From an uncultured Candidatus Saccharibacteria bacterium (GTDB lineage: Bacteria; Patescibacteriota; Saccharimonadia; Saccharimonadales; Saccharimonadaceae), in NCBI GenBank assembly GCA_964480265.1, contig CAYZNY010000006.1, forward strand, positions 1,219 through 65,218: a DNA stretch of 64,000 bases, in the 5' to 3' direction. Shown here piece after piece: positions 2,191 to 47,809 of the stretch (positions are counted from its first letter, which is position 1; each line of letters opens with the position of its first letter). Both the position numbers and the translations under genes were made by a program. The notes under the pieces are model-generated. The model searched no databases and had not been told where the DNA came from. It saw only the letters and a list, made by a program, of their open reading frames with translations.

Positions 2191-3513
2191 CTAGTTTCTT
2201 ACTGTGCCGTTATTATCGCAAGCCCCGTTACTCCAACCATCTTTCGTATACCAGCTGTGCCAGCAATTCGAAGTCACCCAAGAATTTTTCTCGATATTCG
2301 TACCCTGCCCGTCTGTGCTACTCAACTCGAACTCTGGATACGGGAAGAATATATCCGCGGCATCAAGGCGCGCCTCAACTCGGCGATACAGTTGGTTGGT
2401 CCGGCCAGTAGAATCCACACTAATCTGCGAGCCTTGGAAATTGATTTTTGATTCCACGCCAGCCTCGTTGGTTTTTGCGAGCTCGACCTTGAAATCCGTG
2501 AACGCATCACCATATGGCATATTCACAACCAAGAAAACGTTATCACCGTTATTCAGCAAACGCCCGGCGCCATCTGCAACTTCCAAATCAATGTTGCAGA
2601 CAAATTCGTCACCAGGAGCGCATTTTACGCCAAACGGCTTGTGATTGTCCTTGTTATAGCTAGAAATCACATTGCCAGCACCAGCAATTGTAGACCTGGA
2701 AATTGAGCTAACCACCTTATCGCCATCCGCCGGCAAAAGCAGTAATGAGCTATACAATACTTCGCTATTATTATCAGAATCCCAGAAATTCGACAAATCA
2801 GCTGCCGCACTGGCTTTTATCAACGTAATTTGCATAGCTGGTGGAGTGGTTCTTCCTGTGTAGTTCGGCAATACCCAAGTCCCTGAATCGTCATCATAGC
2901 CGGCAAGCGTAAATTCGATATTGCTACCCTGATTTAGCTCCGAATACCAGCTAAACTTAATTTTCGACACCTTCCCGATTCCCTCAGAATTGATCCCCGA
3001 ACCATTCACCGCCAGTGGTACTACACGCGTCCGCGTATCAGATGTCAAGGTTCCGCGATAATCCGGTGTGATATCAGAAATTATGACACACGTATAGGCC
3101 TGATCGACAAAGGTTTCGGAATTAGTCTGACCACTCTCCTGGATTTTGACTTCGCCGGTAAAATTGGTGCCGTATAAGACCCTCGCAAGCGGGAATCCCT
3201 GCGAACAATCGTCGTCGTGCTGTTCTCTCCCGCTAAATACGTTCTTGTTTTCGCACTGGGCCGCACCCTTTTCCTGGACACACTTATAATAATTATTCAC
3301 GGCAACTTTCGCGTCCTCAACCCCAGCTATCGCCGAGTCGTAGGCAGATTGCGATAGATCATCATTGCTACTCTGCGTGGCCTCAGAAAGGATAATCCGC
3401 GTGAAGCTGACCGTGATCACGCCAAACAGAATTGTTGCAAAAATCACCACATAGAGCGAAGCGACGCCGCGTTTAGTTTTTAGATTGGGTTTTTTGAATT
3501 GTATCTTCTTCAT
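2191..3513 (-). CDS. pilus-associated protein with a PilX-N/TadG-like N-terminal anchor
   Basis: The N-terminus KRGVASLYVVIFATILFGVITVSFTRIILSEATQSSNDDLSQSAYDSAIAGVEDA resembles the anchor of PilX_N/TadG-type minor pilus proteins. AGGAGG lies upstream of the ATG. The gap to the upstream gene is 10 nt. Confidence 0.5.
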   Translation of the reverse strand: MKKIQFKKPNLKTKRGVASLYVVIFATILFGVITVSFTRIILSEATQSSNDDLSQSAYDSAIAGVEDAKVAVNNYYKCVQEKGAAQCENKNVFSGREQHDDDCSQGFPLARVLYGTNFTGEVKIQESGQTNSETFVDQAYTCVIISDITPDYRGTLTSDTRTRVVPLAVNGSGINSEGIGKVSKIKFSWYSELNQGSNIEFTLAGYDDDSGTWVLPNYTGRTTPPAMQITLIKASAAADLSNFWDSDNNSEVLYSSLLLLPADGDKVVSSISRSTIAGAGNVISSYNKDNHKPFGVKCAPGDEFVCNIDLEVADGAGRLLNNGDNVFLVVNMPYGDAFTDFKVELAKTNEAGVESKINFQGSQISVDSTGRTNQLYRRVEARLDAADIFFPYPEFELSSTDGQGTNIEKNSWVTSNCWHSWYTKDGWSNGACDNNGTVRN

Positions 3514-3523
3514 CTCCTACCTC

Positions 3524-6500
3524 CTAATACCTTGGTGCCAGTTCCCTAGCATATGCATCGGTATAACTAGAATCATAACGCCCGGCTTGCGCAAATGACC
3601 ATAAATATGACAAAGCACTGAGATTGAACACTTCGCTAGATGTATTTTTAAAGGAACTTATGCCGTAGGCAAGATTATCGGCACCATAAGTCCGGTTCAG
3701 CGTCACCGACTTAGCAACCACCGGGCCATTGATTTGTAACCGATTATCGCAAGTGGTGTTTTGGTTACGATAGACGCTCTGGGTCTCGGTCGTCTTTTCT
3801 ACCCAGTCACTGCAAGTATTGATATTGCCATTTGCAATAATCCAAGCATCAAGCCTTGTCACACTCGGGGCAATCTCTACGTTTCCATCAACATAAATCA
3901 CGACTTGTGGCATCTCGTAAATCGTCTTGCCGCTGGTATTTGCCAGTTCAACATTGCTAGAAATAGTCAAAGTACCATTCTCCCCACCCGGATTGAAGTA
4001 GAGAATTCGCGTGTCGCCTACGCCCACCGCTCCATCATAAGACTTCTCCTCCTGGTCGGCGTTTGTCGCATGGCTCTTCAAATAAGCCGACAGCCTGGTA
4101 CTATATGAAGAATTATAGTTGATACCCGAATTACCGAGCGTAGTTCCATTGGCTACTAGTCCTATATTCGTGATTGTCTGCCAAGCCATATCCCATTGAT
4201 TACCGCTGACTAAGCCCGGGATACCGGCGCCATAGGCCCCGCTCGATGCAAACCGAGAAACTTCGCCTTGGGCTGCCACGATATTCTCGGCCCACGAACC
4301 ATAGGTAGTCTTCTCGCTATCATTATTAAGCTTGGTCGGCTGGCCATTATTTGCTTCGTTATGCCTTGGCGCGGTGGAAGACGACACCCCCGCACCAGAG
4401 AACAGGCTGCCATTCCATACTGCAAAACTTGGTTTCTTGGCAATCGTGCGGCAAGTGGCACTATAATTCGTCCAATAATCTTTGCCGGGGACATAAGTCC
4501 AAGTTGCAACATCGTCGGTCAAACCGCTCGCATCACTAGCTTTCGCAACGCCCCACCAATAGCCCCATTTGTAGCCATAGGAGTTGCAATACTTCCCACC
4601 AACGTTATCCGGAACAGCGATATCAAGTTGCTGCGTGAATGCATCCTGCTCGCTATTATTCGGGGTCGGAACAAGCTGGGTAGCCTTCCCGGCAATACCA
4701 TCGGCATTTTCTTCGATACTCAACCCATCACCGCTAAACTCAGCACAGTTCGCCCCACCAAACGATATCAATCGACCTCCACTCTTCGTGCGGAAATAAT
4801 TACATGGATCACTCGACACGTGGCCGCCAGCATTGACGACGCTTGCGCCTGTGACGTCATCCCGCACTACAAAACCTATCGCAGAATAATCCTTCACCCG
4901 GCGAGTCGGGACGGACTTTGCTGCAACTTTCCAGCCAATACCAGTGTGCTCGCCGGCATACATGATATCGGATGCGCTATCGCCGCCATTCTTAGGGCCG
5001 TATGGATCCGGGTCACCACCCTCAGGTGGATCTGCCGGGCGCGTGATCTCGATGCAGGCTTCAGAGTCCTCGGAATCGTTATTGGCTTGTGGAGTGCCGT
5101 AGTCCCATCGAGGACCAATAGACCACGGACCAGTCCAGATCAAGCTCTCCGTAATTGGGGTAGTATAAGTCTTCGGACTATATTTAATCTTGTGGCAAAC
5201 TTTATAAGTTTTGCCTGCCTCCATACCAGAAATTGTATAAGTATGGGTAGATACTTCTTCTCCGCCATTGTCTGTATCTTTATCGGTGCCAGCTTTATAG
5301 GTCGCGTCTTCGTCGTTATTATTCTCTACAACACCACCAGTATCACCGGTCAGTTCATAGCTTAAATTAGTCTGCGAGCCAACATACACCCAGTCACCAT
5401 TGCAAGAACCGTCGGCATTGGTCGAAATACACCCATCCCAATAACGCCACATATTTCTTGTCCAATCCGTCCAATCGAAATCCATATTATGCGAAAGTGT
5501 AAATTGCAAAGAGTCACTATCGGTGCTGACTTTGAGCCCGACCGCAGCATCCTTATCCGAAGTCTGTTTGCCGGGGTCGTACCCACCAAGCTGAGCACTG
5601 GCGTTCGGAACCTGCACGCTAGAAGTTGCCCAAAATTCATCCTTAGGCTCCGCAGGTTTGTCGATACGCTTCGCAACAACACAAACCGATGTGTGCGCAC
5701 GTCCTGTTTCTTTAACAATATCTCCACCGTCTGCGCTAGTAAAAACAAAGCGTAGTGGCTCAATGGTCATAGTCTGGCACTTTGTCGCAGTCGACCCGAC
5801 GTTATCAAGTTGTAACGTGTATGGCTTGTTGCCGACATTGGTATGCTCCTTCTTCTTTTTCCAAGGCTCGATCTCCCAATCCGTAGAACAAAGATCTCTA
5901 CCACCGCACGCGTCAACATCTCCATCGGCGATATCATACCAAAGATCTAATCTAAAACTACGATCAGACCATCGTTTTTTGGTTTCATCCCAGCTAGAAT
6001 CTTCATTTTGATAATACTGGTTATGCCACATATTCCCAGATACACTGCTATTAGATGTTTCCACAGTAATAGTCATAACATTATTCTTACCAAAACCAGT
6101 GCTGTCCGGGCCAACATCCGCCCCAGTCTTGGAGCCAGAAACCCCGTTAACGCTGACTCCCGAGTTGGCGGTCACATAGCCCTTACCTTTTGTCTCGTCA
6201 GTATAGTCTGAACAAAACCATGTGGTATTACCCCATGCGGCATCATCCGGTCCAATCAAGTTTAACTCCTTTGCTTTATCGTGTTGAGCTTTAACATCAT
6301 TCCATTTTTCTGTCCCCGCCAGACTTTCAATAACATTATAGCTTCCAGACCCACCCGCATAAGTAGGCTTCACTTGGTGTACCTGGACACCAGGATTAAA
6401 TGCTTGCTCACCCACAAATGACCAACTACTGGCCGAACTACCTTTTTTGACTTTCTCATAGGCAAGCACAAAGTAGCCCTTAGCCCCGATCGCACTACAC

Positions 6501-6733
6501 CTTGATTTCGCATTTGCATTTGCATTACTATTTACTTTGTAATATCGCCATGATACACCATAATGCCCACACCATGTTACTTTACTTACTGCGGTCGTAC
6601 ATTTACTTGTGCTGCTTGCAGTATCCTCGCCATCACTTTCGTAATCGCTTGCAAAAACCGCACTGGACATTGCCAAACATCCCAACACAATACCAGAGAT
6701 CAATAACGGGATTATCTTTCTACGTGCTAACAT
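3524..6733 (-). CDS. large secreted protein (1069 aa), function unknown; candidate pilus-associated adhesin
   Basis: It has a Sec-type signal peptide, MLARRKIIPLLISGIVLGCLAMSSAVFA|SD. Its start abuts the stop of the upstream gene, and the PilX-like gene follows it in the same operon. Confidence 0.75.
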   Translation of the reverse strand: MLARRKIIPLLISGIVLGCLAMSSAVFASDYESDGEDTASSTSKCTTAVSKVTWCGHYGVSWRYYKVNSNANANAKSRCSAIGAKGYFVLAYEKVKKGSSASSWSFVGEQAFNPGVQVHQVKPTYAGGSGSYNVIESLAGTEKWNDVKAQHDKAKELNLIGPDDAAWGNTTWFCSDYTDETKGKGYVTANSGVSVNGVSGSKTGADVGPDSTGFGKNNVMTITVETSNSSVSGNMWHNQYYQNEDSSWDETKKRWSDRSFRLDLWYDIADGDVDACGGRDLCSTDWEIEPWKKKKEHTNVGNKPYTLQLDNVGSTATKCQTMTIEPLRFVFTSADGGDIVKETGRAHTSVCVVAKRIDKPAEPKDEFWATSSVQVPNASAQLGGYDPGKQTSDKDAAVGLKVSTDSDSLQFTLSHNMDFDWTDWTRNMWRYWDGCISTNADGSCNGDWVYVGSQTNLSYELTGDTGGVVENNNDEDATYKAGTDKDTDNGGEEVSTHTYTISGMEAGKTYKVCHKIKYSPKTYTTPITESLIWTGPWSIGPRWDYGTPQANNDSEDSEACIEITRPADPPEGGDPDPYGPKNGGDSASDIMYAGEHTGIGWKVAAKSVPTRRVKDYSAIGFVVRDDVTGASVVNAGGHVSSDPCNYFRTKSGGRLISFGGANCAEFSGDGLSIEENADGIAGKATQLVPTPNNSEQDAFTQQLDIAVPDNVGGKYCNSYGYKWGYWWGVAKASDASGLTDDVATWTYVPGKDYWTNYSATCRTIAKKPSFAVWNGSLFSGAGVSSSTAPRHNEANNGQPTKLNNDSEKTTYGSWAENIVAAQGEVSRFASSGAYGAGIPGLVSGNQWDMAWQTITNIGLVANGTTLGNSGINYNSSYSTRLSAYLKSHATNADQEEKSYDGAVGVGDTRILYFNPGGENGTLTISSNVELANTSGKTIYEMPQVVIYVDGNVEIAPSVTRLDAWIIANGNINTCSDWVEKTTETQSVYRNQNTTCDNRLQINGPVVAKSVTLNRTYGADNLAYGISSFKNTSSEVFNLSALSYLWSFAQAGRYDSSYTDAYARELAPRY

Positions 6734-8966: not shown

Positions 8967-8995
8967 ATAGTTGAGGGGCGAAGCCCCTCAACTAT
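8967..8995 (-). terminator. 13-bp perfect hairpin overlapping the stop codon of cassette a
   Basis: ATAGTTGAGGGGC-gaa-GCCCCTCAACTAT on the plus strand. It lies between cassette a and the promoter of the next gene. Confidence 0.5.
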
Positions 8996-9279
8996 TTCGC
9001 AACACAGCGGACGGCAAAACCTTGGCCGCGGATAGAGTAGGACTGTGAATCGACGTAGACACCATTGGAAAAGGAAAAGAATAAGAGATTGTTTGCAGAT
9101 TCAGATGAATATGCCGAGTGTGACCAGTAGTACCCTTCTGAGCCTAGTGCGCTTAATGATCCGATATTGTAATAATACTTACCTCCTAACTCAAACCCGA
9201 GCGGCGCGCTACGTAACTGGGTAGAACCGGAGAAGAAGTTAGAAATGTTGTAGTGCGCCGCTCGAAAAACATATCCCGT
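8992..9279 (-). pseudogene. cassette a: start-less C-terminal half of a Fibrobacter-succinogenes-major-paralogous-domain (FISUMP, lectin-like) protein
   Basis: The open frame between stops reads TGYVFRAAHYNISNFFSGSTQLRSAPLGFELGGKYYYNIGSLSALGSEGYYWSHSAYSSESANNLLFFSFSNGVYVDSQSYSIRGQGFAVRCVAK*. It contains no ATG, GTG or TTG. The YWS...G(F/L)(A/S)VRCV ending is the hallmark of that domain family. Confidence 0.7.
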
Positions 9280-9285
9280 CTATGC

Positions 9286-9313
9286 TTGTAGTTTTCTCAA
9301 AATTTGCTATATG
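9286..9313 (+). promoter_or_regulatory. candidate promoter of ncRNA unit 1
   Basis: TTGTAG, 16 nt, TGcTATATG. The predicted start is about 3-4 nt before the closing stem of the RNA. Confidence 0.45.
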
Positions 9314-9319
9314 CTGGAA

Positions 9320-9593
9320 GATAGGACGACAGAGCGCCATGCTACACCGCTCTACGAGAAACTTTAACAGCGGGGAGAAAGGAAGGAGTATGGGGCTCAC
9401 ACTAACCATACGCGTATGGAAATTACGCATAAAAATTAGTTTAGGCAAAGCCCAAACTAATAAAACCCTATCTATATCCTAGCACGCTAATCGCAGACGG
9501 TCAACACCATGTGGGCCGATAATCTACGATTATCGGCCCATCTGCGAAGTGAAACAATGCTAGTGGTGTAATAGCTCTGTCGTCCAGTTTTTT
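9320..9593 (+). ncRNA. unclassified structured ncRNA, unit 1 (about 262-nt core at 9324-9585)
   Basis: The 5' GGACGACAGAGC pairs with the 3' GCTCTGTCGTCC, and a T6 run follows. Internal hairpins include a perfect 12-bp stem, GGGCCGATAATC/GATTATCGGCCC. It is paralogous to unit 2, with compensatory changes between the two. Confidence 0.55.
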
Positions 9594-9600
9594 GATTTAC

Positions 9601-9807
9601 CCTCTCAACTTTCTCCGTACGGGGCACTACTATCGTGCAAATGGTAATATTAATGCTCGTACTCATCATGCTAATTGGTGGTCCGATACAAATATATCTG
9701 CATTTAGTGCATACAACTTGAATACCCGACCAGAGTCTATTGGAAATCAAAGTAGTAGCAACCGTGGTTACGGTTTTGCCATCCGCTGTGTAGTACGGGA
9801 GGGGTGA
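9601..9807 (+). pseudogene. cassette b: start-less FISUMP-like C-terminal fragment (second subfamily)
   Basis: PLNFLRTGHYYRANGNINARTHHANWWSDTNISAFSAYNLNTRPESIGNQSSSNRGYGFAIRCVVREG*. It lies between the 3' ends of the two ncRNA units. The only upstream in-frame start is a TTG inside the RNA terminator, with no RBS. Confidence 0.65.
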
Positions 9808-9840
9808 AATTCGTAGGAAACGGATGAAGAAAATCAGATT

Positions 9841-10106
9841 AAAAATCATGGAACGACAGAGCTACTACATCGTCGGCATCACCTCAACTTCGCGAGGAGT
9901 CTGACCGAAGGTCTTGACTCCTCGCGATCAGCATGCTAGGATGTAAATAGGTTGTTGATTGGTTTAGGCTTTGCCTAAACCAATTTTTACGCTAAGACAT
10001 AGCTTGCCTAGGCGCAGGGTAAGCTGAGCTTCCATTCCTATCTCTCCTTTCTCCCCGCTGTTAAAGTTTCTCGTAGAGCGTGTAGCATGGATGCTCTGTC
10101 GTCCTG
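9841..10106 (-). ncRNA. unclassified structured ncRNA, unit 2 (about 254-nt core at 10104-9851), paralogue of unit 1
   Basis: On the minus strand GGACGACAGAGC...GCTCTGTCGTTC closes the unit and is followed by a T-run. The first 65 nt or so are nearly identical to unit 1. The internal hairpin CGCGAGGAGTC...GACTCCTCGCG replaces the unit 1 hairpin at the same position. Confidence 0.55.
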
Positions 10107-10112
10107 ATCATC

Positions 10113-10141
10113 ATTATACCTCGTGCACCGACACAAAACAA
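10113..10141 (-). promoter_or_regulatory. candidate promoter of ncRNA unit 2
   Basis: On the minus strand: TTGTTT, 17 nt, TATAAT. The -10 ends 8 nt before the closing stem. Confidence 0.5.
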
Positions 10142-10322
10142 CCATATTTTTGCACTTTTCGCCCTTGTTGTAGCAAGGATAGTATCGGTCCCCCTCCCTA
10201 TCATATAGCAAATTTAGATGAAAGTACAAGCGTAAGCATGAAACTTCACAACTTTACGTTTAAAATGGTCAAAAATCTTGATTTTAAACGCAAAGACCAA
10301 TGCGCTTTGGCTACTCAGCCAC

Positions 10323-14247: not shown

Positions 14248-14269
14248 CTCTCAACTTTCTCCGTATGGG
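14248..14269. repeat. isolated 22-nt copy of the cassette b/e 5' flank (CTCTCAACTTTCTCCGTATGGG)
   Basis: It matches 9602-9623 at 21/22 positions. It also matches the reverse complement of 27134-27155. It lies 5 nt beyond the CCA end of tRNA-Met. Confidence 0.8.
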
Positions 14270-24124: not shown

Positions 24125-24381
24125 ACTGACGCACCCCCTTCCTTGTTCATGTGAATGTGATCGTTTTGTTTTTTATAATCACTACCAGGGGGTACCAACC
24201 CCCAGTAGGAGTTGGCGAACCAACTACCAACCAGCCAATCCGGCTGATCGTTAGACACGATATATATCAACAGATACAACCTCGCAGTTACCATTATGGC
24301 AACGGTATTGTATCTGAGATGATTCGATTGTTAAGTGGACCTCTGGCCGGGCCGCTCCCGTAGCTCTTCCAGACTGCTTCC

Positions 24382-26098: not shown

Positions 26099-26407
26099 TT
26101 ATATAAAGGCTGGACCTTACCTTCCTCCGCCGATTATGCGAATCTTATCACCACTACCTACAATATCCCTAACTCCTCCTCCGGTTCTACCCAGCTACGT
26201 AGCGCGCCGCTCGGGTTTGAGTATACGGGTAGTTATGTGTATTTCAGCGGTTCATTAACTCAGATCGATATAGCTGGTAGATATTGGTCTCGTTCAATAC
26301 ATTCTGATAGCGAAGCTTACAATCTAATCTTTGAGTCTGCTGATGTTTCTCCACGGTCCTATTATCGTCGTGGAGATGGTTTTGCCGTCCGCTGTGTTGC
26401 GAGATAG
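26099..26407 (+). pseudogene. cassette c: start-less FISUMP-like fragment (longest copy, begins at the GW.LP core)
   Basis: The open frame after a TAG stop reads LYKGWTLPSSADYANLITTTYNIPNSSSGSTQLRSAPLGFEYTGSYVYFSGSLTQIDIAGRYWSRSIHSDSEAYNLIFESADVSPRSYYRRGDGFAVRCVAR*. There is no usable start codon and no RBS. Confidence 0.7.
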
Positions 26408-26484
26408 TTGAGGGAGGAGACATCACGACCCGTTATTAGACGAATAGCAGCTTTTGAAAGAAAGTATGTTATAATGAGAGAGTT

Positions 26485-26577
26485 GGAGGGTTACCCAAGT
26501 GGCTGAAGGGGACGGTTTGCTAAATCGTTAGTCTGGGGAGACCTGGAGCGGGAGTTCGAATCTCCCACCCTCCGCCA
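26485..26577 (+). tRNA. tRNA-Ser(GCT), class II, CCA encoded
   Basis: GGAGGGTTACCCAAGTGGCTGAAGGGGACGGTTTGCTAAATCGT + long variable arm + GCGGGAGTTCGAATCTCCCACCCTCCGCCA. Confidence 0.9.
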
Positions 26578-26590
26578 TAGGGGATTTTTC

Positions 26591-26611
26591 GACCTTTTGA
26601 AGGTCTTTTTT
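26591..26611 (+). terminator. intrinsic terminator of tRNA-Ser
   Basis: A GACCTT/AAGGTC hairpin followed by T6. Confidence 0.6.
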
Positions 26612-26842
26612 GATGGTTCTACCCAGTTACGTGGCGCGCCGCTCGGGTTTGAGTATACTGGCATTTATAACTACGATGGCTCAGTGAGTACTGTCGCCTA
26701 CGGGTACTATTGGTCGCGCTCGGCAAGATCAGATATAGCTACCTATAACTTCTACTTTGGGTCTAGTTTTGTAAATCCGCAGAGTAGTTACTTCCGTGGT
26801 AACGGTTTTGCCGTCCGCTGTGGGGTGGAACGTAAGGAATAA
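26612..26842 (+). pseudogene. cassette d: start-less FISUMP-like fragment that begins exactly at the conserved head
   Basis: DGSTQLRGAPLGFEYTGIYNYDGSVSTVAYGYYWSRSARSDIATYNFYFGSSFVNPQSSYFRGNGFAVRCGVERKE*. The listed TTG start lies inside the tRNA terminator. Confidence 0.65.
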
Positions 26843-26949
26843 CCAAGTTCGCTTTGAACATTGAAAGACACCACCGAGGCCTGCCCGTGACCGAGCTTTG
26901 GTGTAGCGTCAGGGTATGTTCAAAAAGAACTATCCTATCCCCTATTCCT

Positions 26950-27182
26950 TCACCCCTCCCATACTACACAGCGGATGGCAAAACCGTGTCCGCAGTAATC
27001 GTTACCCTGAGGGTCGACATTCGTCAGGTTCGTATGCAGGTAGCGACCGTACGCAGCCGAATAGCTAGCATCCGACCACCAGAGGCCACCTACGGTACGA
27101 TTGAAGATGTAGCCATTGGAACGACCGTAGAGGCCCGTACGGAGAAAGTTGAGAGCGGCGCGCTACGTAGCTGGATAGAACC
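26950..27182 (-). pseudogene. cassette e: FISUMP-like fragment with head and body in different frames
   Basis: The body reads LNFLRTGLYGRSNGYIFNRTVGGLWWSDASYSAAYGRYLHTNLTNVDPQGNDYCGHGFAIRCVVWEG*. The head (GSIQLRSAP) is joined to it out of frame, because the junction is 2 nt longer than in a, c and d. Confidence 0.65.
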
Positions 27183-27202
27183 GGAGGAGATTTACCGTTA
27201 GA

Positions 27203-27243
27203 TGTAGACAATTAATTTTTATGCTATAATAAAATTGTCTACA
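27203..27243. promoter_or_regulatory. 11-bp inverted repeat (TGTAGACAATT/AATTGTCTACA) bracketing a TGcTATAAT -10 element; operator-like
   Basis: The arms are at 27203-27213 and 27233-27243, and the -10 is at 27225-27230. A third TGTAGACAA copy is at 27339-27347. Confidence 0.5.
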
Positions 27244-27370
27244 CAATTAGTGAACAAATCGAAAATCTGCAAAAAACAGATCGATTAAGGTTAATAGGCG
27301 GCAACTGTCCTAAGACAATCTTAATCAGATTTGTTCGGTGTAGACAACCAAAGGCGGTTGTCGCTTTTTG
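27237..27370 (+). promoter_or_regulatory. structured 5' leader (or small RNA) ending in a terminator-like hairpin
   Basis: Nested pairings: GAACAAATC(27252)/GATTTGTTC(27328), ATCTG/CAGAT, GATTAAG(27283)/CTTAATC(27320) and TAGG/CCTA. Then GACAACC/GGTTGTC (27343-27362) followed by GCTTTTT. Confidence 0.45.
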
Positions 27371-27407
27371 TTAGTAACCTATGATGCATCAAGATTATGG
27401 AGGTAAC

Positions 27408-29852: not shown

Positions 29853-30419
29853 ATGGCTAGACCGTCAAAATACAACAAAGAACTAGTAGCGCAAATTGTC
29901 GACTATATCGCTGATGGGCTAACTATCCGTGATACTTGCTATGGGGCTGGGATATCTGAGGACACTTTTTGGAGATGGAATCGAGAAAAGCTAGAGTTTG
30001 CTGAAGTTATCAAAGAAGCTACCAATCGCCAAAAGTGGACTAGCGAAGCTTTGAAGCGTACGAGCGAGTACCGAAGGTACACGAGAAAGGCTCATATCTA
30101 TTCTAGAAAGACGCTGAAGCGTCAGAAGCCTGTCCGTGTTCGTATCGCATCAGAAAAGCCCTTAGAACGAGCCCTAGAAGCCTCAGAGGGCATAATTAGC
30201 CAAAACACTGGTAGACGGCAGCCAAGTCCAAGAAATATCCTTCCGACTCGTTCTGAGGCTCCGATTAATGCTTTTGGTGAATTGGTATTCTCTAGGCCCT
30301 ACTACAACCAAACTACCGACCGAGTTGAATGGATTGAGAAAGAAACCTACGGTAGATATGTCCTCCACTCGTGTAGGGTGGAAGTGTGGGAGGAATCGTT
30401 AGCAAAGAATGAGGGATAG
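29853..30419 (+). CDS. HTH DNA-binding protein resembling phage terminase small subunits
   Basis: The N-terminus MARPSKYNKELVAQIVDYIADGLTIRDTCYGAGISEDTFWRWNREKLEFAEVIKEA follows the RPSKY...I...G.S...C...GIS..TF..W...EF pattern common in phage small terminase/HTH proteins. Confidence 0.4.
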   Translation: MARPSKYNKELVAQIVDYIADGLTIRDTCYGAGISEDTFWRWNREKLEFAEVIKEATNRQKWTSEALKRTSEYRRYTRKAHIYSRKTLKRQKPVRVRIASEKPLERALEASEGIISQNTGRRQPSPRNILPTRSEAPINAFGELVFSRPYYNQTTDRVEWIEKETYGRYVLHSCRVEVWEESLAKNEG

Positions 30420-32548: not shown

Positions 32549-34231
32549 ATGGACGGCATTAGAAAAAAGGCCTATGGTTACAGACGCGTTTCTACCGTAG
32601 GGCAAGTAGACGGAGCTTCTCTGGGAACACAGACAGAGAAAATAACAAGTTATGCAGAAGCAAACAATATCGAAATCGTGGATTGGTTTGAGGATCCAGG
32701 TTATTCAGCGAAAGATGCTAATAGGCCAGACCTTCAAAGAATGCTTGAGTCAATCAAGAAACACAAGGGTGAAGTTGACTTCGTTATCATTCACGACAGC
32801 ACACGGTTATCCAGAAACCTAGCTTCTTTTTATGTCGATATTTGGCCCACGCTGCACAAGAACGGTGTACGGCTCTTATCAGCAACAGAGAATTACGGCG
32901 ACGAAAAAGACCCGACTGGCGACATTCCAATGATTTTCGGTGTTCTTACTGGTCAAATTGACAATAAGAATAAATCTAATTCTACTAAAAATAATATGGA
33001 TGACCTTTTTAGCAACAGTGGCTGGTGGATGGGTGGCAGAACGCCACTAGGATATAGGATTGAACGCATATTCGTTGAAGGAAGGCAGCGCGATGGTCAT
33101 CAGAAGTCCCACGCCATACTGGTGCCAGACAACACCAATGGTCTTGCAGATAAAATTGCTTTTTTGCTTAACCGTTTTTCCGAGGGTGATTTGTTATCAT
33201 CGGATCTACTTCAAATCGCCCATAAAATAGATATCCGCGGCTTCAAAGGTGAACTGCTCGCGCAAAGCACTCTAGATGGCATCTTAACAAACGAAATCTA
33301 TGCTGGATATCATACATCAAAAACGATGGCCAACCAGCAAAGGGTTAAAATGAGGTTCGGAGGCATAATATCGTTAGAGACATACGAGAAAAATCAAAGA
33401 ATTATAAATAAAAATGGCAAACCCCACGAAAAGAGTAATGAATTGGAATATCCACTCAGCAAAACTGCTTGTTGCGCTATTTGTGGCGCAATGATGACCG
33501 ACGAGGAAAGAGAAGTAAAAACCACAAAAGGCAAGCTTCCATACCTTCGTTATAGCGCACCAAAAAGTGGTTCCGGCAAGCACACTCCACGCTATAGTTG
33601 TAAATGTAGAGGACACGGATCTATTCGTGCTTCCGATGCCCATCAGATTTTTGAATGCTATCTCAAGCAAATTACGCCAACCAAAGAAATGGTAAAGTTA
33701 TTCAAAGAGATTGTGAGACGCACGGCCCTCAAAAAACTCGGCAATACCAATAAACAAATTAGCGAGCTTGAAGCAAAAAGTAAAGAGATTCGGAATGATA
33801 AAGAAAATGCTCTTAAGAAGCTTTTAAAGAACGATATGGGGCTCGACGACGGTGAACAGCGAGAGCTAATGGGGTCATATGATGCCGATCGTAGTAGGAT
33901 TGAGTCTGAACTCGCAGATCTGAAGCAAATCCAGTTATTGAGAGAAGCCGACATTGAGTATGTCTGCAACTTTATGAGTATGCCAGCTAAACTTTGGCGA
34001 GATGGCGATTTAGAGACTAAGCAAGCTATTCAAAAGATGATTTTTCCAAATGGCATATATTTTGACCTCAAGAATAAAAAGTGTGGAACCAACGAAATTA
34101 GCCCTCTGTTCTCTGTTACAGACATCAAAAAAGCACCTTCTGGTGCAGATTTGAATGCTCTGGGGTGGGATATCGGAATTGAACCGACGACCTTCTGGAC
34201 CACAATCAGACGCTCTAACCAACTGAGCTAA
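32549..34231 (+). CDS. large serine recombinase (resolvase-type catalytic domain + recombinase domain + zinc ribbon + coiled coil)
   Basis: The N-terminus is YGYRRVSTVGQVDGASLGTQ...DPGYSAKDANRPDLQRML...FVIIHDSTRLSRN, with the catalytic Ser in RVST. Cys clusters are CCAICG...YSCKCRGH. The last 35 codons or so are antisense to the tRNA-His terminator and tRNA-His. Confidence 0.85.
   Translation: MDGIRKKAYGYRRVSTVGQVDGASLGTQTEKITSYAEANNIEIVDWFEDPGYSAKDANRPDLQRMLESIKKHKGEVDFVIIHDSTRLSRNLASFYVDIWPTLHKNGVRLLSATENYGDEKDPTGDIPMIFGVLTGQIDNKNKSNSTKNNMDDLFSNSGWWMGGRTPLGYRIERIFVEGRQRDGHQKSHAILVPDNTNGLADKIAFLLNRFSEGDLLSSDLLQIAHKIDIRGFKGELLAQSTLDGILTNEIYAGYHTSKTMANQQRVKMRFGGIISLETYEKNQRIINKNGKPHEKSNELEYPLSKTACCAICGAMMTDEEREVKTTKGKLPYLRYSAPKSGSGKHTPRYSCKCRGHGSIRASDAHQIFECYLKQITPTKEMVKLFKEIVRRTALKKLGNTNKQISELEAKSKEIRNDKENALKKLLKNDMGLDDGEQRELMGSYDADRSRIESELADLKQIQLLREADIEYVCNFMSMPAKLWRDGDLETKQAIQKMIFPNGIYFDLKNKKCGTNEISPLFSVTDIKKAPSGADLNALGWDIGIEPTTFWTTIRRSNQLS
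34127..34146 (-). terminator. intrinsic terminator of tRNA-His, inside the recombinase ORF
   Basis: On the minus strand: GCACC-agaa-GGTGC followed by T6, 15 nt after the tRNA CCA end. Confidence 0.55.
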
Positions 34232-34238
34232 TCCCACC
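34161..34238 (-). tRNA. tRNA-His(GTG) with extra 5' G(-1), CCA encoded
   Basis: The reverse complement is G-GTGGGATTAGCTCAGTTGGTTAGAGCGTCTGATTGTGGTCCAGAAGGTCGTCGGTTCAATTCCGATATCCCAC-C-CCA. Confidence 0.85.
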
Positions 34239-45524: not shown

Positions 45525-45553
45525 ATTGTATCACAGATAGCTGATTTTGTCAA
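45525..45553 (-). promoter_or_regulatory. consensus sigma70 promoter for 44714..45511
   Basis: On the minus strand: TTGACA, 17 nt, TACAAT. It overlaps the 3' end of the upstream gene. Confidence 0.6.
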
Positions 45554-46709
45554 TACCGTTTTGCTGAGCAAAAGCACGATTCTCGTCAATCACCTTTTGA
45601 TATTTCAATGCAAGATCTTCTCTGTCCTCCATTTTTGCGACCTCAATCGCCAAATCATAGCGCGAGGCCTGGTTCAGGCTCAGCATTTCAAACGGTGTAG
45701 TTGTGCTGCCCTGCTCATTATATCCATGGATATGCAGCCTCTTACCATCGGTATATTCGGCCAAAATCGACTTCAAAGCACCGGCATAGCCATGGAAATT
45801 GCCAATAATCGGAACTTTCTTTGAGAATAGTTCGTCGAACTTCTTCTGGCTAAGTGTCTTGCCGACTAAGCCGATTTTACCATAACTGAGAGCACAAATA
45901 TTCACAAAACGGAATTTCTTATCTGGCAAATCTCCCCGCAAAATCTCGATTGCGCGAATCGCCTCGCCCGAGACAATATCCCCCGCTCCGATCAAAACAT
46001 AATCTGGCTCGCCATCATCAGAAATAAAATCTAGTACACCCGCACCACCATCGTGCAACATCTGATCGGCCTGATGCGAATCGATCCAACGTGGTAAATC
46101 AATCTTGTTGAAAGTATTAAGATTTACTACGTCCTGCGATTTCAGCATATAAATCATACTCGCCTCAGCTGCAACATCGTCAATCGGGAAAAGACAATTG
46201 GCTAGACCACTGGGATTACCAAGCAGCATCGAGACTAGCTCTGGCGATTGGTGAGTGAAACCATTATGATCCTGCCGCCAACAAGTACTGGTCGAGAGCA
46301 AATTGATTGCTGGAATCGGCTCGCGCCAGGCTACTGATTTTGATTGTTTGATAAATTTTAGCTCTTGCATCACCTGCGAGCCAATAATCGTGAAGAACGA
46401 CTCGTAGCTAGTCATTGCGGCTGGCTCACCATTCATAAGGTGCCCAACCATACAGGCGAATAGCGCATTCTCAGAAAGCATTTCCACGATATGCCCATTT
46501 GGTGACTCGGGCAAATCCCAGGCCTCCTTTGGTAAATCCCACAGGCGGCTACTAACCTCATAAACCACGTCAAGCTTGTTGCTGGTAGTTTCGTCGGGCG
46601 AGAATAAATAGAAGTCGTCGTGATGCAACATATAGCTCGCCAAGACGGCACCAATCTTCTTGGCCGGAGAGAATAGATCCTTGCCAGGGTTTTTGACTTG
46701 ATCAATCAT
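45531..46709 (-). CDS. xfp: phosphoketolase, C-terminal two-thirds (separate ORF)
   Basis: FYLFSPDETTSNKL matches the FR.FGPDE..SNRL block, and the remainder resembles the XFP middle and C-terminal domains. The start ATG overlaps the stop of the N-terminal ORF (ATGA). Confidence 0.8.
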   Translation of the reverse strand: MIDQVKNPGKDLFSPAKKIGAVLASYMLHHDDFYLFSPDETTSNKLDVVYEVSSRLWDLPKEAWDLPESPNGHIVEMLSENALFACMVGHLMNGEPAAMTSYESFFTIIGSQVMQELKFIKQSKSVAWREPIPAINLLSTSTCWRQDHNGFTHQSPELVSMLLGNPSGLANCLFPIDDVAAEASMIYMLKSQDVVNLNTFNKIDLPRWIDSHQADQMLHDGGAGVLDFISDDGEPDYVLIGAGDIVSGEAIRAIEILRGDLPDKKFRFVNICALSYGKIGLVGKTLSQKKFDELFSKKVPIIGNFHGYAGALKSILAEYTDGKRLHIHGYNEQGSTTTPFEMLSLNQASRYDLAIEVAKMEDREDLALKYQKVIDENRAFAQQNGIDKISYL

Positions 46710-47809
46710 TGCAAAAATCCTTTCTTGGCATCAAATAGCTCGTTAAACTCATAGCTTTTCAGCCAGCTGCTTAGCATTTTTAGCTGCTCGGGGTCGGTCT
46801 TTGCCTCCGGAAGCGGAATTTGATGGGCAAGATAATTCCCCGCTACTTTTTTACCATCAAGCTCTTTCGGGCCAGTTTCGCCTTTCTCGCTTCTGAAAAT
46901 AATAAACGGATGCTCAATCCTAGCCGACTCGCGCAAAGCAGCCTGGAAAACATCCGGCGCATCACCCTCAACCCACAGCGGCGTATATCCAAAACCACGC
47001 ACAAGCTCTGAAAGCTCACGCCTAGACTTGCGGCCATAAACCGTTGGACCGGAGATCTTGTATCCATTCAGATGTAGGATCGGCAAGACCAAACCATGAT
47101 AATGCTGATCCCCCACTAGCTTAATAAGATTTAATGACGCCAGTGCAGTGGCGGTTTCTAGCTCGCCATCTCCTAACATAACGGCAATGGTTTGCTCCGG
47201 GTGACCAAGCGCAAGCCCATAAGCTGCCCCCAGTGCATAACCGAGCTCGCCACCCTCACAAACTACACCCGGCGTAATCGGGCTAGCATGTGACGGGAAC
47301 CCCCCTGGCCAAGAAAAATTATGACAAATATAAGCCAAGCCATCCGCATCACGTGTCGCCTTGGGATCGACGGTTTCTAAATCTCCGTCATAAAACAAAT
47401 TTGCCTGCAAAGCTGGAAAACCGTGGCCCGGCCCAAGGATAAACCGAAAATTCTCACAGACTTCGTTTTTGATAGACTTTCTCGGTAGACGGTCTCGAAT
47501 AGCAATTGCCTGCTCGGTCGCAACCTTGGTTTTGGACCGCCCTGCCGCCCGCAGCACCGCCTCTCGGTCGCTATCGCTGGCAGTCGCCCCTTGACCCTCC
47601 GGGCAAAAATAAGCTCGCAAATTTGCATAAGCAACGTTGATCCCGTGACAAGTCCCCCAGTGGCCAAGCAGGCGCGGCTTGATATCCTCCGCCGATAGAG
47701 GTTTTTCAAGCAAAAAATTATTTTGCAAAAAAAGTTGCGCCACCGCGAGATAATCGCACGCCCGCACGCGCCGTTGAATCTCCTCATTACCTCCATGGTG
47801 ACCATTCAT
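46706..47809 (-). CDS. xfp: phosphoketolase, N-terminal thiamine-diphosphate-binding part (separate ORF)
   Basis: It has LLGHWGT and the XFP signatures EGGELGY and GDGELETA. Relative to my memory of canonical enzymes, there is an insert after GHWGT. TGcTATAAT lies 7 nt upstream of the ATG. Confidence 0.8.
   Translation of the reverse strand: MNGHHGGNEEIQRRVRACDYLAVAQLFLQNNFLLEKPLSAEDIKPRLLGHWGTCHGINVAYANLRAYFCPEGQGATASDSDREAVLRAAGRSKTKVATEQAIAIRDRLPRKSIKNEVCENFRFILGPGHGFPALQANLFYDGDLETVDPKATRDADGLAYICHNFSWPGGFPSHASPITPGVVCEGGELGYALGAAYGLALGHPEQTIAVMLGDGELETATALASLNLIKLVGDQHYHGLVLPILHLNGYKISGPTVYGRKSRRELSELVRGFGYTPLWVEGDAPDVFQAALRESARIEHPFIIFRSEKGETGPKELDGKKVAGNYLAHQIPLPEAKTDPEQLKMLSSWLKSYEFNELFDAKKGFLQ

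Follow-up and report, generated by a model that had tools for sequence, protein, structure and literature searches.

Cassettes c, d and e, which lie around a tRNA-Ser gene in the 64-kb stretch of DNA analysed here (the window), are promoterless end-pieces of a lectin-like surface-protein gene stranded in intergenic DNA. Together with two further units, a and b, located 17 kb from c/d/e, and a 22-nt remnant, they probably represent orphan copies of the variable repeat (VR) of a diversity-generating retroelement (DGR), mostly surviving as relics in the window, the target genes being secreted proteins with a C-terminal Fib_succ_major (FISUMP) domain. The adenine pattern of a template repeat (TR) and a complete locus in relatives (L040/L041) identify family-2 units (in the window b and e) as DGR variable repeats, the adenine pattern being seen directly in the relatives and indirectly for e, and family 1 (a, c, d) presumably belongs to the same DGR process.

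In a complete DGR, a reverse transcriptase copies TR RNA, misincorporating opposite adenines, and the mutagenised cDNA replaces the VR, here the stretch from the head-equivalent region to the tail, just before the stop codon. For the BPP-1 DGR the 3' end of the VR and a downstream hairpin are sufficient for target recognition, the upstream gene being dispensable (Guo et al. 2011, PMC3240598). Because recognition needs these two elements only, detached units of about 200-300 bp can persist and be rewritten, and they would also act as dispersed repeats for homologous or microhomology recombination, giving rise to chimeras such as e.

Orphan units in the window

All five units encode the C-terminal part of the Fib_succ_major/Lcl_C domain, ending in ...GFA[VI]RCV followed by a stop codon; both Pfam families presumably have a C-type-lectin-like fold. 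The clear Pfam matches cover the last third or half of the domain with scores under the gathering cut-offs, because only half a domain is present, as seen for unit c (Fib_succ_major E=9e-5, Lcl_C E=0.008, both under the cut-offs; profile positions 69-186 of 187). Family-1 bodies (a, c, d) read GSTQLRSAPLGFEYTG...YWSRS... and family-2 bodies (b, e) PLNFLRTG...WWS.... None of the five bodies contains a stop codon; an in-frame stop lies within 59-99 codons 5' of each tail, and no unit has a plausible start codon. Unit c, open from the codon after a TAG through its own TAG stop and likewise without a start codon, keeps 28 codons 5' of the head (KGWTLPSSADY...), followed by head, body and tail, and unit d has body and tail intact. 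Unit b is A/Asn-rich and strongly diverged, and is flanked on both sides by the 3' end of a structured RNA-like element, present in two copies. Reading around all five units, we found neither a complete, expressible target gene nor an upstream constant ORF leading into the heads. The absence of start codons and of a complete target gene, the frameshift in e and the ancient divergence of the bodies suggest that the window units are mostly relics and not active substrates, although they could still serve as DGR substrates or as a recombination archive.

Table 1. Coordinates of units and neighbouring features, in window positions except where a related locus (L number) is given
Feature	Position	Strand	Remark
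Unit a	8993-9290	-	family-1 unit
Inverted head core and head, unit a	9250-9263 vs 9199-9212		
Inverted head core and head, L002	6544-6557 vs 6500-6513		
Inverted head core and head, L012	about 10103-10170		
Structured RNA-like element, copy 1	9322-9597	+	unit b starts 8 nt past its T-run
Unit b	9598-9807	+	family-2 unit with VR-type ends
Structured RNA-like element, copy 2	9845-10106	-	converges on b
Solo 22-nt 5' end of family-2 unit, CTCTCAACTTTCTCCGTATGGG	14248-14269	+	beside 3' end of tRNA-Met
Unit c	26099-26407	+	family-1 orphan VR-type unit, longest copy
tRNA-Ser(gct)	26485-26577	+	between c and d; context, outside the unit family
Intrinsic terminator of tRNA-Ser	26591-26611	+	stem 26591-26605, then T-run
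Unit d	26615-26842	+	family-1, 5' end cut inside conserved head block, TAA stop
Hairpin between d and e	26848-26929		9-bp inverted repeat and 5-bp outer stem
Unit e	26950-27200	-	family-1 head and complete family-2 unit; faces d
Unit e, family-2 unit	27155-26950	-	own TGA stop
Unit e, family-1 head	27190-27153	-	from sequence
190-aa tyrosine recombinase, L012	9320-9892		Phage_integrase, E=6e-25
190-aa tyrosine recombinase, L013	1070-1642		Phage_integrase, E=6e-25

Re-reading the sequence and the open frames confirms the existence of the three cassettes around tRNA-Ser as described in an earlier sequence-only reading, and the coordinates bear out the order of unit c, tRNA-Ser and terminator as well as the convergence of e on d from the opposite strand. 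One detail of unit d had to be corrected: it does not begin at the first nucleotide of the conserved head, being cut about 8 nt inside a block that reaches at least 8 nt further upstream (CTCCTCCG) in a, c, e and the two closest foreign copies, L002 and L012. It starts 4 nt past the terminator T-run. The 9-bp inverted repeat reported between d and e is real, its arms lying at 26853-26861 and 26916-26924 instead of about 26855-26923 as proposed. As + strand RNA this hairpin folds with z = -3.1, and weak partial matches (84-88% over 25 nt, E 0.008-0.1) are located downstream of family-1 units in L004, L010 and L023. A perfect 11-bp hairpin at 8970-8994 overlaps the stop codon of unit a and runs past it; units c and e have no downstream hairpin. 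Within 300 nt of a tRNA gene we found 11 of 61 units, compared to 7% expected from all positions, a modest enrichment that may reflect shared intergenic space only, and we therefore set tRNA adjacency aside as evidence for a mechanism.

The conservation of the unit ends is a property of the DNA. The head TCTAYCCAGYTACGTRGCGCGCCGCTC occurs four times in the window (a, c, d and e only) against 0 copies expected, and the tail GGTTTTGCCRTCCGCTGTG five times against 0.03 expected, with head identities of 91-97% among the window units and tails being about 100% identical (18-19 of 19 positions across all five units). Comparing c, d and a with L002 and L012, the heads differ at 2-5 of 42 nt and head plus tail are 88-100% identical despite the diverged family-1 bodies, the third codon positions of which differ at 42-67%, in addition to indels. 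Head conservation therefore exceeds protein constraint, and the intuition of the sequence-only reading that something acts on the DNA itself was sound, the head being kept while third positions are saturated. Bodies so far apart and carrying indels cannot have been written recently from one template; DGR homing alone does not explain conserved family-1 heads and tails around saturated bodies. In a, L002 and L012 the head is preceded, at a distance of 30-36 nt, by an inverted copy of the 14-nt head core GAGCGGCGCRCTMC. A hairpin of 12-14 bp could form there, at the very point where homology to longer copies stops; the inverted copy could originate from fold-back synthesis, or be an inversion scar or a recombinase site.

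The two copies of the structured RNA-like element flanking unit b, each about 265 nt in length and 79% identical, are closed by a 12-bp stem, carry promoter-like hexamers, have a T-run at the 3' end and fold with -107 and -109 kcal/mol (z = -9.4 and -8.6). A homolog with a family-2 unit directly 3' of it is present in the distant MAG OOIH01 (L019 1432-1724), and the three sequences show eight compensatory base pairs. Rfam returned tRNAs only, both for the entire window and, at E<=1, for 9200-10300, and the element is probably an undescribed structured RNA.

Several further features of the window were recorded. A large serine recombinase ORF at 32549-34231 (+) overlaps tRNA-His (34161-34237, -), and a terminase-small/HTH_Tnp_1-like gene (29853-30419) lies 2 kb upstream of it, suggesting an integrated mobile element bordering c/d/e. 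The motif TGTAGACAA, present three times (27205-27260, 27339-27352) and twice palindromic around a TATAAT box, is found upstream of a 331-aa gene at 27381 and is probably an operator. Repeats of 34-41 nt at 24379, 25994, 37171, 45522 and 56577 (TATTGAC-N17-TACAATGGA, minus strand) are a strong promoter consensus shared by minus-strand genes downstream and not a mobile repeat. Phosphoketolase (XFP) is encoded by two adjacent ORFs of 367 aa and 392 aa (45531-47809, -), which could be due to a frameshift, a pseudogene or a genuinely split gene.

Template repeat and adenine bias in related genomes

Comparison of the locus with related contigs, as proposed in the sequence-only reading, recovered units in which a triad of family-2 (+), family-1 (+) and family-2 (-) recurs intergenically (L004, L005, L009, L010), accompanied by many further copies; distant lineages share the unit types, their boundaries and the arrangement of the triad. 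Judging by gene content, L004, L005 and L009 may derive from Saccharibacteria. A profile of the family-1 units matched thousands of FISUMP proteins, the close family-1 homologs all being short ORFs of 70-242 aa. Family-2 homologs have 60-118 aa in all 120 matches listed from a collection of 5.8 billion proteins, with no full-length family-2 protein among these. Only one of 56 tails in all the DNA examined ends a long ORF (L008/L024), and complete targets were found in L008/L024 and L040 only. The complete-domain gene of L008 (P0172) and the orphan units have almost the same head, over about 130 nt. A search of PDB sequences with P0172 returned no meaningful match, and its AlphaFold2 model was unusable (mean pLDDT 41).

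Scanning genome contigs with the head DNA retrieved L002 only, labelled as an uncultured Clostridia MAG, plus the chance match L001. IMG/VR scans for head, tail and RNA element gave nothing or the chance match L003, and a JGI scan with a family-1 peptide pattern gave no match. Our literature search returned no paper on FISUMP, nor on the domain together with Saccharibacteria, and the passages of DGR surveys consulted do not mention orphan or intergenic VR units.

The origin of the family-2 diversity became apparent from the copies of a single genome, whose differences upon alignment are nearly confined to the first two positions of scattered codons, with few A in the invariant columns. A metagenome scan with an invariant 20-mer yielded 25 loci, most of them from one MAG, OOIH01, and one MAG contains no fewer than 28 full-length family-2 units together with a template repeat. 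All hypervariable codons of this TR (L031/L039) read AAC or AAT, and at its 3' end it diverges from the VR tail. Across 37 distinct family-2 copies, 28 of them full-length, mismatches to the TR are found at 730 of 1673 positions (43.6%) at its adenines compared to 201 of 4561 (4.4%) at other sites; one copy differs at 18 of 50 A sites and at 0 of 136 others. The first A of the AAY codons of the L031 TR is altered in 26-32 of 35 copies and the second A in 9-15, while adenines in TAC and ACT are altered in 0-2 of about 35 copies (0-5 for TAC, ACT and CAC together). This unevenness points either to a strong context dependence of the reverse transcriptase or to selection acting on sequences without obvious expression.

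The family-2 TR stands alone between an SDR gene and tRNA-Glu (L031 about 845-1029, -; L039 10001-10436), behind promoter-like hexamers (TATAAT, assigned by eye). No reverse transcriptase was found within 10 kb of the TR in the unit-richest MAG, nor in roughly 370 kb of loci covered by an RT motif screen with Pfam check of the motif matches, and a TR standing alone without a nearby reverse transcriptase is unusual for a DGR. A complete locus is present in L040/L041, comprising a 563-aa secreted FISUMP target and a TR together with a 335-aa accessory gene and a 425-aa RVT_1 reverse transcriptase. In L040 all 16 mismatches between TR and VR, over 207 aligned nt, fall on TR adenines, and in L040/L041 the TR-VR homology begins at FLRTG, which is where the family-2 units start. 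The reverse transcriptase of L010 was rejected as a DGR enzyme, being part of an unrelated type VI retron (HTH_VI + RT_VI; 2647-3925) with no TR nearby, which lies in a strain-specific island upstream of ftsH.

Using TR positions taken from the template of the relatives, we compared unit e with its two nearest relatives, both in L012. Differences from f2b affect 58% of TR-A sites but 11% of the remaining ones (p=2e-10), and those from f2a 46% and 13% (p=6e-6), indirectly indicating that e carries the adenine-mutagenesis signature. Unit b shows 33% differences at non-A sites, with codon positions one to three affected alike, and is more decayed than e. We rejected unit b as a TR, as both of its ends are of VR type and 35% of its non-A sites mismatch the TR, and c/d as a VR/TR pair, as their mismatches are not adenine-specific and include indels. 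Family-1 units in the genomes of relatives show a pattern similar to family 2 but less clean, and a family-1 TR was found nowhere. The window contains neither a template repeat nor a full-length FISUMP gene, and Pfam detected no RVT_1 in its ORFs of at least about 140 aa outside longer opposite-strand ORFs.

The likeness to DGRs of the Bordetella phage BPP-1 Mtd type and to the cellular DGRs of Patescibacteria ('clade 2' of Roux et al. 2021, PMC8144416) comprises the position of the VR at the extreme 3' end of a lectin-like domain, the conserved 3' tail, a hairpin downstream of units a and d and, in relatives, a TR with AAY codons and adenine-specific mismatches as well as one complete locus. 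The units differ from such DGRs in being detached from a target gene in the window and at most related loci, in reaching tens of copies per genome and in being copied between loci, in the one TR standing alone and in the lack of a reverse transcriptase or TR in the window itself.

Exchange between copies and competing explanations

Unit e supports the earlier description of a family-1 head placed on a family-2 body. In a, c and d the junction reads GCGCGCCGCTC-GGG-TTT and in e GCGCGCCGCTC-TCAAC-TTT, the 2 extra nt putting head and body out of frame. Fusion of a family-1 head with a complete family-2 unit at a CTC microhomology makes e a chimera. Family-2 units of three lineages show a 5' boundary of their own, CCTCTCAAC, beyond which the upstream DNA is unrelated; their 5' ends are ragged around this sequence and their 3' ends constant. 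Unit e is thus a family-2 unit abutting a solo family-1 head, which fits recombination between copies.

Transfer between copies as such was seen in the relatives only. At the EF-P locus, two strains with 99.9% identity otherwise have different VRs, and each of these matches a unit at another locus (21 of 22 and 18 of 19 informative sites), compared to a median of about 19% shared informative adenine-site states for pairs of units. Contigs that share 99.7% identity downstream have a unit body exchanged precisely at the tail, the mosaic L012_f2a combines an L002-like 5' part with an e-like 3' part, and L005-9323 and L036+13290 differ near the 3' end only, as partial homing would give. The possibility raised with the sequence-only reading that the fragments decay without any exchange between copies is countered by the EF-P-locus VRs and L012_f2a. 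Of its recombination model the exchange is real, but the main source of diversity is adenine hypermutation, so that recombination between copies is secondary.

A tentative extension of the DGR explanation, which we regard as rather unlikely, is that the escaped multi-copy VR units form a genome-wide two-tier library feeding a few expressed FISUMP proteins from a trans-acting TR. Such a library would combine hypermutation with cassette exchange: tens of intergenic copies would stay substrates for adenine-mutagenic homing, one preferred unit position would be directly behind the structured RNA of about 265 nt, and the TR would work in trans, far from its reverse transcriptase.

Quite unlikely in our view is an archive of silent cassettes, in which promoterless donors are transferred by gene conversion via head and tail into an expressed FISUMP gene elsewhere, a DGR perhaps seeding the diversity. 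The preservation of head and tail far beyond the synonymous sites of the bodies would suit this explanation, as would the identical variable patterns at different loci, the mosaic units including the body swapped exactly at the tail, and the orphan-like head of the complete-domain gene P0172 in the relatives. The few changes at TR adenines in Tyr/Thr codons likewise fit sequences once filtered by expression. That all five bodies are stop-free also counts in its favour, but AAY-to-NNY mutagenesis cannot create stops, so that open frames need no selection. Against an archive, the window has no expression locus, the 120 family-2 matches listed include no full-length protein, and the frameshift in e, the ragged 5' ends and the 22-nt solo end resemble debris. 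With Neisseria pilE/pilS and Borrelia vlsE/vls the units share promoterless partial copies with conserved flanks and a variable core and, in the relatives, mosaics and inter-locus exchange. They differ from these systems in that no expression site was identified, in being scattered instead of arrayed and in a diversity that carries the adenine signature of a reverse transcriptase and not accumulated point mutations. No expression locus, recombinase, template or reverse transcriptase for a working pilS-like system was seen in the window.

Highly improbable is a shufflon-like inversion, in which the head would be the site of a small tyrosine recombinase and inversion of c or d relative to e would swap C-termini. 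The heads of c and e, 940 nt apart, do make up an inverted repeat of 37 nt with 97% complementarity, and a, L002 and L012 each carry the 14-nt core in inverted orientation before the head. The closest relatives of the a/b locus, L012 and L013, have a 190-aa Phage_integrase gene that stops 25 nt short of a family-2/family-1 pair. As in the R64 shufflon and other multiple-inversion systems, alternative C-terminal segments occur in both orientations bounded by short conserved repeats, and the small tyrosine recombinase adjoins units in L012 and L013. However, the window has no homolog of the L012 recombinase, its large serine recombinase lying 5 kb off beside tRNA-His and looking like a mobile-element integrase, and no constant 5' gene segment leads into any head. 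Family-2 units, moreover, have no head, leaving one unit family without the repeat, and the head-equivalent DNA of the unit-richest lineage is neither palindromic nor GC-rich. Inert debris of rearranged paralogous FISUMP pseudogenes without any ongoing process is hardly credible either: missing start codons and promoters, the frameshift in e, ragged truncations and saturated bodies would be expected of it, but neutral decay would erode head and tail as fast as the third positions of the bodies, all five frames are intact, and types, boundaries and triad recur in distant lineages.

Possible consequences for surface-protein variation

In DGRs as described, one template rewrites the VR of a single complete target gene or of a few such genes. 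Most VR-type units found here stand detached in multiple copies and lack promoters, and in the relatives they show a fresh adenine signature and are copied between loci. For genome analyses this is of practical importance, as the units break assemblies and are called as 'hypothetical proteins' of 60-120 aa in many MAGs. If the orphan units are by-products, DGR target sites can spread and persist selfishly, which is possible because recognition needs the 3' end of the VR only. If they are functional, a cassette archive would be linked to hypermutation by a retroelement, providing a new way for a host-dependent bacterium with a small genome to vary a surface lectin.
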